From Escherichia coli (lineage in GTDB: Bacteria; Pseudomonadota; Gammaproteobacteria; Enterobacterales; Enterobacteriaceae): a stretch of DNA of 64,000 nucleotides. The DNA is taken from NCBI RefSeq assembly GCF_017348835.2, contig NZ_CP071375.1. One strand, 5' to 3'. This document shows, one piece after another, positions 12,001-15,000 of this stretch. Within the stretch, counting starts at the first letter, position 1. Every line of letters begins with the position of its first letter. Made by a program: the position numbers.

Positions 12001-15000
12001 TGGAGATAAATGCACCGGCAGCATAATAAAAAAAGAGCCAGCGACTGACCTGAAAGAAGACGCTGGCTAAAAGGCCTTATATGTTTGTAGAGACTTATTT
12101 TTCACAGACAGCAATGATGCCTGTCAATATATTATCAATATGCGGATTGTTTCAGTTACAGATGCTTTATTAAGGAAAAAAACAGCCAGCACTGACTTTC
12201 GGTGGAGAGGTGCTGGCTCAGAAGGATAGTTGGATTTCACATGATACTTATGTCTGGCGGTATATTTTCTGACAGACAGTGACGGATGTTGTCAAGATAT
12301 TGTGTCATTTATAACCTGAACCAGGGGGGCCGGAATGTTATCTGGCATTTTTAGCAGAGCCTGAATGCCATAATCACGGCTCCCGGAGTTGGCCGTCAGT
12401 GGGTGACACTGGCGGCTTTTTGTTTTCCTTTACTTTCATTTTCTGTCGGCGGTGACGGAGACATACATCAGATGGAAAAAATCACAACAGGTGTGTCATA
12501 CACCACGTCAGCGGTAGGGACGGGATACTGGTTACTGCAACTGCTGGACAAAGTCTCTCCGTCCCAGTGGGTGGCAATAGGTGTACTGGGGAGTCTGCTG
12601 TTTGGCCTGCTGACGTATCTGACTAACCTGTATTTCAAAATCAGAGAGGACCGGCGTAAGGCGGTGCGGGGAGAGTAAAGTGATGAAGAAAAAATACGAA
12701 CTGGTTGTTAAAGGGATAAATAATTACCCGGATAAGATTACTGTTACTGTGGCACTGGAAATTGGTGGGTATCCGTCACTGTTGTTGCCAGATGTGGCGA
12801 TTAGTCTTGACCGTACTGAAGGTGCCACGCTGGAGTTTTACGAAGCTGAGGCGAAAAAGCAGGCGAAGCAGTTTTTCATGGATGTTGCTGCCGGGTTATG
12901 TGAAGGGGATGGTCCGTTGCCGGAAAAGCGGCCCATCATTTTAGAGGCGCAGGATGTGTTGATAACCTACAGAGGAAAACTACCGGGAATAATTACTGGT
13001 TCTCTGAAGACTCCACCGCTGGCCTGAAGACTTAACATATCCAGGGATTTGAAATCGATAAATCCTGATAAATATCCATGAACGCAAAAATCAGATACGG
13101 CCTGTCGGCTGCCGTTCTGGCGCTGATTGGTGCAGGGGCGTCTGCGCCTGAAATCCTCGACCAGTTTCTGGATGAAAAGGATGGTAACCACACCACAGCA
13201 TACCGTGATGGTACGGGTATCTGGACCATCTGCCGCGGTGCCATCCTGGTGGATGGTAAACCTGTCGTCCCGGGCATGAAGTTGTCGAAGGAAAAATGCG
13301 ACCAGGTTAACGCCATTGAGCGTGATAAGGCGCTGGCATGGGTGGAGAAAAACATCAAAGTGCCGCTGACCGAACCCCAGAAAGCGGGGATCGCGTCATT
13401 CTGTCCGTACAACATTGGTCCCGGTAAGTGTTTCCCGTCGACGTTTTACAGACGAATTAATGCAGGTGATCGCAGGGGAGCATGTGAGGCGATTCGCTGG
13501 TGGATTAAGGACGGTGGCAGAGACTGCCGTATTCGCTCAAACAACTGCTACGGTCAGGTCTCACGGCGTGACCAGGAGAGCGCGCTGGCGTGCTGGGGAA
13601 TTGACAGATAAGAAGAATATTTTGCTGAAAAATGAGGTTTGCTTACATGGACGGATAACACGAAATCCTGCAAATTGGCAAAATGTAAGTGAATAAAGTT
13701 AAAACAGTTGTTTAACACTCAGGCACCGTAATGATGCCTTTGTCATTTCTGCGCATCTCACGCGCATCTCACAACACAGAACCTTTCAGGATGACCCTTG
13801 AGGATACCGGTTTGGCTGTGCCTTTCTGTGGGCTGGATTCCTGTGAGACAAGGTTCATCACTAAAAGGAAATAACCGATGAATATGATGGCCGTGCCGTT
13901 TTATGTAGTTAACCATAATGGCGAACCATACGTTCCCATGAAACCTGTCGTTGCGGGGATGGGGCTGGCCTGGCAATCACAGTTGGCTAAGTTAAGACAG
14001 CGTTTTGCGTCAACTATAACGGAAATCGTTATGGTTGCTGAGGATGGGAAACAACGCAATATGGTGTCCATGCCACTTCGAAAACTTGCCGGCTGGCTAC
14101 AAACCATTAATCCCAACAAAGTAAAACCCGAAATCCGCGATAAGGTCATCCGGTATCAGGAAGAGTGCGACGATGTTCTTTACGAGTACTGGACGAAGGG
14201 TTTTGTCGTTAATCCCCGTAAAATGAGCGTGATGGAAGAACTCAACCAGGCTTGTGCTGACATGAAACGGGATAAAAACATTGCCAGTGTGTTTGCTACC
14301 GGGCTGAATGAGTGGAAACAGGTTAAAGCCGCGCATGTATCAAAAATCCGTACGCTGGTAAATGAAGCGAATATGCTGATTGATTTTGTCCTGGCTGATA
14401 CAGGCAAAGGGAAAATAACAAAGGCGGATTGATGGGGTGGCTAATGATATCAGATAAACTCATAACGCTGGTGAAGAGCCTCTGTGTACTTGTCGGCATT
14501 TCATTTTTAGTCATGCTGGTTGCCATTTTCTTTTCCACCGCCTGGCGAGTCCTGACGTTATCGGGACTGGTGGGGTGAAAGAGAGATGAACCGTGTTCTG
14601 TGTGTGGTGATTATTGTCCTGGCGGTTGGCTGTGGTGCGCTGTGGCTGGCAACAAACCATTACCGTGACAACGCGCTCACCTACAAAGCGCAGCGCGATA
14701 AAAAAGCCAGAGAGCTGGAACAGGCGAATGCCACCATTACTGACATGCAGGTGCGCCAGCGTGATGTTGCTGCGCTCGATGCAAAATACTCGAGGGAGTT
14801 AGCCGATGCGAGAGCTGAAAATGAAACTCTGCGTGCTGATGTTGCCGCTGGTCGTAAGCGCCTGCGGATCAACGCCACCTGCTCCGGTACCGTGCGTGAA
14901 GCCACCGGCACCTCCGGCGTGGATAATGCAACCGGCCCCCGACTGGCAGACACCGCTGAACGGGATTATTTCATCCTCAGAGAACGGTTGATGACAATGC

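Follow-up and report, generated by a model that had tools for sequence, protein, structure and literature searches.

Tandem hairpin-bearing repeats between nanS-p and the holin gene of an Escherichia coli prophage match the catalogued Hfq-bound RNAs EcOnc51/52 and EcOnc35

Prophages of Shiga toxin-producing (STEC) and enteropathogenic (EPEC) Escherichia coli encode several small RNAs (sRNAs), AgvB, AsxR, StxS and HnrS among them, through which host regulation is rewired in lysogens. AgvB and AsxR (RF02702 and RF02703) are prophage-borne, Hfq-bound RNAs of 51-60 nucleotides (nt) that are encoded antisense to the Q-dependent late operon and converge with it, end at an intrinsic terminator and combine a conserved 3' part with a variable 5' part. 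HnrS is a multicopy sRNA of EPEC and enterohaemorrhagic E. coli (EHEC) prophages, for which Poudyal et al. (2025, bioRxiv) reported as many as about nine copies in one genome. Tree et al. (2014, Table S2, PMC4104026) predicted further sRNAs, including EcOnc35, EcOnc51 and EcOnc52, from Hfq peaks that crosslinking and analysis of cDNA (CRAC) had revealed in strain Sakai of E. coli O157:H7. Here we analysed a stretch of 64,000 nt from E. coli (contig NZ_CP071375.1, assembly GCF_017348835.2), called the window below, in which a 445-bp spacer separates a nanS-p-type esterase gene from a class II holin gene and two collinear hairpin-bearing repeat units occupy the start of this spacer. Judged by sequence, the units are the loci already catalogued as EcOnc51/52 and EcOnc35 and not new ones, and they are probably paralogous tandem sRNA genes with their own terminators, located on the minus strand, antisense to and convergent with the late operon.

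The units thus share with AgvB and AsxR their prophage location, Hfq binding, antisense orientation towards the late operon, intrinsic terminator and the partition into a conserved 3' and a variable 5' part. They differ from these RNAs in position, as the units follow nanS-p whereas AgvB and AsxR precede it, in predicted length (approximately 63 and 83 nt), and in having no known sponge target. Neither sequence nor covariance-model similarity links the two groups: the window contains an AgvB copy 2 kb upstream of the units, and this copy (9967-10028) is the only AgvB/AsxR match returned by cmscan, which over positions 9000-15000 and at E-values up to 10 found no Rfam family in 12025-12310. HnrS likewise resides in the late region on the antisense strand, and the repeat locus also reaches a maximum of nine copies per genome. 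This shared figure suggested that the units might be HnrS itself, a candidate we rejected, as HnrS maps 3 kb downstream and is unrelated in sequence, and the 15-mer complementary to mazF lies outside the repeats. With canonical Rho-independent terminators the units share, on the minus strand, a GC-rich stem and the U7 that comes after it, and they are set apart from plain terminators by a promoter-like block about 60-85 nt upstream of each and by an Hfq-bound product. The locus adds two Hfq-bound RNAs to the prophage repertoire, encoded at a second conserved late-region site.

Unit 1 spans 12025-12172 (148 bp) and unit 2 spans 12173-12310 (138 bp), each an antisense sRNA/terminator cassette on the minus strand. 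Read along the plus strand, both have the same module order, from an A7 run through an AGCCAGC…GCTGGCT hairpin and a body to a conserved block. Aligning them with MAFFT gave a mean column identity of 72%, with three conserved segments in collinear order, and the local alignment score lies well above that of shuffled sequences (z = 6.8). Both AAAAAAANAGCCAGC and the composite motif ACAGACAG-N10-TGTCAANATATT match exactly twice in the 64-kb window, each time within the units, compared with 0.07 and 0.00 matches expected from dinucleotide shuffles. This confirms that the repeat pair is real and consists of two diverged copies of one module, as the preliminary description of this DNA had proposed. 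The pair escaped Tandem Repeats Finder, the copies being too divergent and differing by an indel of about 17 nt in the body. Two details of that description needed adjustment: the hairpins measure 33 nt (unit 1) and 35 nt (unit 2) instead of 30 bp, and the claim that the units end with the conserved block stands only in part, as a further 39 bases (12134-12172) follow the block of unit 1. Its statement that no open reading frame (ORF) explains the units proved correct, the only overlapping ORFs encoding 30 amino acids (plus strand) and 38 amino acids (minus strand). A coding explanation was rejected, since neither these ORFs nor a 13-codon plus-strand micro-ORF in unit 2, in which 6 of the 13 residues differ between two unit 2 alleles, are conserved at the protein level. 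Current reference records contain no gene inside the units, and the GenBank record of phage H-19B has no features in this spacer; a 47-amino-acid minus-strand ORF in the RAST record of phage 2B8 is placed in the spacer downstream of unit 2, outside both units.

The published Hfq-CRAC peaks provide the link to transcripts. EcOnc52 was mapped to prophage Sp4 (1181998-1182075, minus strand) and EcOnc51 to Sp12 (2237479-2237555, plus strand), each in three of five CRAC datasets, and EcOnc35 to Sp4 (1186583-1186656, plus strand) in all five (Tree et al. 2014, PMC4104026). These coordinates refer to NC_002695.1, for which we derived from AgvB and HnrS an offset to NC_002695.2 of approximately +137 nt at Sp10 and Sp12 and approximately 0 at Sp4. 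The peaks were assigned to the units by BLAST and alignment to the Sakai loci, and the assignment was settled with read sequences from RNase E crosslinking, ligation and sequencing of hybrids (CLASH), which are given in supplementary file 9 of Waters et al. 2017 (PMC5286369). Over 148 nt, unit 1 and Sp12 agree at 100% identity; identity to Sp4 is likewise 100% but ends after 125 nt, at an insertion of the insertion sequence (IS) IS629. Unit 2 aligns to Sakai 1186369-1186759; it has the same hairpin and U-tract as the EcOnc35 locus and deviates from it at two positions of the unit, of which one falls in the conserved block and the other in the RNA body. The EcOnc51 and EcOnc52 peaks accordingly fall at about 12016-12096 of the window (unit 1) and the EcOnc35 peak at about 12266-12193 (unit 2), all on the minus strand, and Table S2 of Tree et al. 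lists no Hfq peak here on the strand of the late operon.

The CLASH reads give the same strand, every recovered fragment of either unit being minus-strand sequence. For unit 1 these are the EcOnc51 fragment TCATTGCTGTCTGTGAAAAATAAGTC (12117 to 12092) and a fragment common to EcOnc51 and EcOnc52, CTTTCAGGTCAGTCGCTGGCTCTTTTT (12056 to 12030), which ends inside the U-tract. For unit 2, the EcOnc35 fragments CGCCAGGCATAAGTATCATGTGAAATCCAACT, AATCCAACTATCCTTCTGAGCCAGCACCTCTCCA and …GTCAGTGCTGGCTGTTTTTT all match the minus strand, the first with a single body-base difference from the window (G for A at 12253). The 3' ends of the fragments, CTCTTTTT in unit 1 and GTTTTTT in unit 2, are located in the U-tracts. 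Taken together, the mapped peaks and reads show that minus-strand RNA of both units is bound by Hfq and RNase E in vivo. Sequence, strand, terminator and position of the catalogue entries all agree with the units; the catalogue does not record the tandem paralogy of EcOnc35 and EcOnc51/52, the shared block, a Northern size or a function. What our analysis adds is that the three entries represent two tandem paralogues sharing a promoter-like block, that loci carry either one or two units, and that the body of unit 2 is dimorphic. The paralogy, the shared block and the dimorphic body are modest but usable leads for characterisation of these RNAs.

The architecture of the hairpins identifies the minus strand as the informative strand for both units. 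The hairpin of unit 1 (12036-12068, AGCCAGCG…CGCTGGCT) has an 8-bp GC-rich stem, AGCCAGCG/CGCUGGCU, and that of unit 2 (12184-12218, AGCCAGCAC…GTGCTGGCT) a 9-bp stem, AGCCAGCAC/GUGCUGGCU. Their folding energies are -15.5 and -16.3 kcal/mol on the minus strand and -14.5 and -20.8 kcal/mol on the plus strand for units 1 and 2, respectively. It is only on the minus strand that a U7 tract follows both hairpins (12028-12034 and 12176-12182, visible on the plus strand as A7 runs), giving the form of an intrinsic terminator; the plus-strand sequences after the hairpins, AAAAGGCC and CAGAAGGA, contain no U-tract. In the curated record of phage 434, which is 95% identical here, both hairpins are annotated as minus-strand terminators, and a terminator scan flagged the inner sub-stem of the unit 1 hairpin on the minus strand (12050-12036). 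Among 13 distinct hairpin variants 92% of the stem cells are paired, with two compensatory pairs (C-G to U-A in the unit 2 hairpin of strain D1, and G-C versus A-U between the unit types), and two variants contain a U·G stem pair where the plus strand would have A·C. An A-run next to a hairpin is thus to be read on the opposite strand. Of the three interpretations offered in the preliminary description, small RNA genes can be retained, albeit on the minus strand, and neither lysis-operon modules nor mobile-element ends are supported. Because the plus strand lacks a U-tract after either hairpin, the hairpins are not terminators of the lysis operon; the minus-strand annotation in phage 434 and the presence of plus-strand terminators further downstream also speak against a terminator/antiterminator role in that operon.

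Both units further possess the features of an Hfq-binding module, namely a terminator hairpin whose U-tail comprises no fewer than 6-7 U and a U-rich stretch directly 5' of the stem (CCUUUU-A in unit 1, CCUUCU-G in unit 2). The bodies preceding the hairpins (12069-12091 in unit 1 and 12219-12259 in unit 2, both minus strand) should, according to fold prediction, remain mostly single-stranded, unit 2 showing weak pairing at most. The CCUUUU end of the unit 1 body adjoins the hairpin and the body falls within the EcOnc51/52 Hfq peaks, and the unit 2 body is the base-pairing region in CLASH hybrids. Upstream of the bodies lies the block common to both units, at 12098-12133 in unit 1 (TTTTCACAGACAGCAATGATGCCTGTCAATATATT at 12099-12133), where it is nearly invariant in 46 locus variants, and at 12265-12301 in unit 2, where TTGACA and CTGTCTG occur in every variant. 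Inspecting the minus strand by eye, we recognised a putative promoter in each block: in unit 1 a perfect -35 element TTGACA (12127-12122), an 18-bp spacer ending in TGT and a hexamer GAAAAA (12103-12098), and in unit 2 the same TTGACA (12295-12290) and TGT-ending 18-bp spacer with a hexamer CAGAAA (12271-12266). The starts predicted from the TTGACA/N18 arrangement are at about 12091 for unit 1 and 12259 for unit 2. Consistent with the latter, the most upstream of about 12 EcOnc35 CLASH entries, CGCCAGGCAT…, has its first base at the position equivalent to 12259, beyond which no other entry extends upstream; no EcOnc52 CLASH fragment lies upstream of about 12072. The promoter scan proposed alternatives, namely a minus-strand -10 element TATATT (12131-12126) in unit 1 and, on the plus strand of unit 1, CAGACA-N17-TATATT (12105-12133), whose geometry recurs in unit 2 as CAGACA-N17-GATATT.

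In order to rationalise these features at the molecular level, we propose the following mechanism, in which the promoters, the start sites, independent transcription and any trans-regulatory role are inferred. In the lysogen, late transcription would halt at tR', far upstream of the units, and host sigma-70 RNA polymerase would initiate at the conserved block through TTGACA, the 18-bp spacer with its TGT (extended -10) and the A-rich hexamer. Transcription would proceed through the short body and terminate at the GC-rich hairpin and U7, yielding RNAs of about 63 nt from unit 1 (approximately 12091 to 12029) and about 83 nt from unit 2 (approximately 12259 to 12177). Hfq would bind a module made up of the U-tail and the U-rich stretch beside the hairpin, and the single-stranded body may base-pair with host mRNAs. 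The succession of conserved block, variable body and conserved terminator fits a design of promoter, seed and Hfq module. AgvB and HnrS, both present in this window and likewise oriented against the late operon, provide a precedent for such prophage sRNAs. CLASH hybrid partners of the unit RNAs are nlpD/ECs3596, ECs0783, ECs0536 and ECs5124, the EcOnc35 fragment that starts at the 12259 equivalent pairing with ECs0783 via CGCCAGGC.

Several observations weigh against independent sRNA genes of this kind. The low sequence diversity of the copies makes the covariation support modest, and this covariation evidence is thin because the search for distant relatives gave little. No Northern size is given for EcOnc35, EcOnc51 or EcOnc52 in Table S2 of Tree et al., and our literature search found no main-text mention of the three names in any paper of the collection searched. 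The CLASH hybrids were recovered only once or twice each, so their partners are candidate targets and no proof of function. Other such observations would suit passive insulators, hairpins that merely stop stray antisense transcription from the lysis/holin side before it reaches nanS-p, with neither a dedicated promoter nor a regulatory role and with incidental binding of Hfq and RNase E. The GAAAAA and CAGAAA hexamers are weak -10 elements that lack the usual T at -7 and were not flagged by the promoter scan. The EcOnc51 fragment at 12117 to 12092 begins upstream of the predicted unit 1 start, and some antisense transcription therefore starts further upstream, either from the TATATT -10 element or as transcripts that read through from unit 2. 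Waters et al. (2017, PMC5286369) assigned the Sp12 copy of unit 2 to the 3' untranslated region of ECs5452, a small ORF, and the phage 434 record describes both hairpins simply as terminators. We nevertheless consider passive insulation unlikely. A shared, conserved TTGACA block before each of two tandem terminators is hard to explain without a promoter, no upstream antisense gene is annotated in current records (ECs5452 is missing from the current annotation of the Sp12 spacer), the EcOnc35 fragments respect the predicted start, and the unit bodies form hybrids with mRNAs.

A different function could follow from position, as the RNAs are perfectly complementary to the spacer between nanS-p and the holin gene S in the late mRNA, and unit 2 keeps a conserved distance of about 290 bp to the holin ATG. 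Lambdoid phages use such antisense RNAs, oop and sar. The units might therefore regulate the late transcript in cis after induction instead of acting on host mRNAs, either by creating RNase III sites between nanS-p and S that tune holin expression or lysis timing, or by convergent-transcription interference. Given that the RNAs were detected in uninduced lysogens, Hfq-bound and hybridised with chromosomal mRNAs, and that unit 1 persists on plasmids that have no lysis cassette, we rate cis regulation as the sole function as improbable; as an additional role it is compatible with trans-acting sRNA genes. Still less probable is a function on the plus strand, whereby the block, together with a T-rich upstream element, would act as a sigma-70 promoter directed towards the holin leader and the hairpins would stabilise the 3' end of the nanS-p mRNA. 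The promoter-scan site in unit 1, its retained geometry in unit 2, hairpins that fold on the plus strand too and begin 10 nt after the nanS-p stop, and downstream terminators that could cap such a transcript are all compatible with this idea, which is opposed by the exclusively minus-strand RNA fragments, the lack of a listed Hfq peak on the late-operon strand, the restriction of U-tracts to the minus strand and a weak plus-strand -35 element (4/6). Decayed mobile-element ends or a functionless neutral duplication, finally, are hardly credible: IS elements are often inserted in or beside the units and loci vary between one and two units, but terminal inverted repeats and target-site duplications are absent, and conservation is selective, affecting block, stem and U-tract but not the variable body. 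A miniature inverted-repeat transposable element or IS end was also rejected, as the only inverted repeats in the units are the hairpins and copies are confined to the nanS-p/holin context or its remnants.

We return to the probable sRNA genes and their distribution. The pair of units is a conserved feature of Escherichia lambdoid prophages. Of 5,426 complete E. coli genomes, 691 (approximately 13%) carry the locus, the number of loci per positive genome having a median of 5 and reaching 9 at most. In H-19B, phage 434, YYZ-2008 and 22 Stx1a phages the spacer retains an identity of at least 95%. Outside E. coli, the species-representative genomes contained it only in E. albertii, all other hits being chance matches, and a scan of viral contigs returned only near-identical E. 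coli prophages. In the commonest architecture the nanS-p stop codon is followed by unit 1, unit 2 and the holin gene, and in every architecture the first hairpin begins 10 nt past the nanS-p stop. Comparison among phages, suggested earlier as a check on copy number, indeed revealed variation between one and two units: in strain D1 and phage 2B8 the nanS-p stop is immediately followed by unit 2 and unit 1 is absent, and the stem in 2B8 resembles that of unit 1. In Sakai Sp10 an unrelated 149-bp spacer is present, in which only AAAAAGTGAGCCAG is kept.

Across 46 distinct spacers, unit 1, both blocks, the stems and the U-tracts are nearly invariant, except for length polymorphism of the T-tracts (the U7 tract of unit 1 included). 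Block, stem and U-tract are also what the two diverged paralogues have kept in common. Variation in unit 2 is concentrated at 12219-12265, between flanks that are invariant or nearly so. The unit 2 body exists as two deeply diverged alleles (examples are loci L097 and L103), each accounting for about 30 of the 83 spacer copies from viral-contig and reference loci, and these alleles differ at about 12 of 40 positions. The split could reflect seed diversification or recombination between lineages. On a bolder reading, which we put forward tentatively and think rather unlikely, the units would be a modular cassette with a fixed promoter block, a fixed Hfq terminator and an exchangeable seed, diversified by duplication and recombination, the block perhaps being bidirectional and feeding a terminated holin-leader RNA. 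If so, the difference between units 1 and 2, the two unit 2 alleles and the hybrid form in 2B8 would each have arisen in this way, and multicopy STEC prophages would deploy different seeds against host mRNAs.

Additional arrangements of the units were encountered in plasmids and rearranged prophages. EHEC plasmids of about 80-108 kb carry a 3' remnant of nanS-p and unit 1 alone (approximately 93% identical) beside the uilS lactonase gene, as in NZ_CP027473 (locus L003, 3913-4151), a phage fragment that has retained the sRNA/terminator cassette. On plasmid NZ_CP027545 (locus L004, 2733-5467) the units are flanked by IS3 and ISEc20, and one further locus (L031) contains an insertion of about 1.26 kb between units 1 and 2. 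Sakai Sp4 has an additional lysis module in the opposite orientation, and this second module contains a unit 2 copy, EcOnc35 (locus L114, 1670-2260, within which the alignment to unit 2 covers 1870-2260); the forward unit 1 of this prophage is cut by IS629 after nt 125 of the unit (locus L006, 2632), and the two units are about 4.5 kb apart.

The flanking genes and RNAs place the units within a mosaic prophage. The nanS-p-type esterase gene (10176-12026, plus strand) is an ORF of 616 amino acids, homologous loci of which are annotated as SASA family carbohydrate esterase, and the class II (S21-type) holin gene (12472-12678, plus strand) was recognised from its sequence and from homologues annotated as holin. 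Between unit 2 and the holin ATG, the terminator scan located two terminator-like plus-strand hairpins with T-runs, at 12329-12346 and at 12391-12417 (12391-12427 in its wider extent). The second, an intrinsic terminator, is also annotated in phage 434 and, in contrast to the hairpins of the units, faces the late operon. Both would stop non-antiterminated transcription before the holin gene, including any that the unit 2 block might initiate as a plus-strand promoter. Upstream of nanS-p, an STnc100/StxS-type PR' leader RNA (9774-9966, plus strand; 145.8 bits, Rfam) stands back to back with AgvB (9967-10028, minus strand; 96.5 bits, Rfam). The leader and AgvB are 100% identical to Sakai Sp10 and the spacer between nanS-p and holin is Sp12-like, and the prophage is therefore a mosaic.

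With regard to pairing partners among these RNAs, sponge or anti-sRNA pairing of the units with AgvB, HnrS or a StxS-like RNA was considered and rejected, as duplex energies were no better than those of shuffled sequences. The EcOnc51-nlpD hybrid, a speculative case given its low count, pairs via UUGCUGUCUGU at 12104-12114 (minus strand), within the conserved block, and the pairing site in nlpD falls within the long rpoS leader. The UUGCUGUCUGU string resembles the UUGCUGUGUGU segment of RprA. Downstream of the holin gene, the window carries a copy of HnrS (EcOnc10-12), a 66-nt RNA, at about 15254-15319 on the minus strand, with a hairpin and U7 and with the surrounding 101 nt identical to Sakai Sp10 and Sp12. 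A 15-nt complement of the mazF 3' end lies within it at 15288-15302 (minus strand), and the CLASH reads confirmed the mazF 3' sequence used.

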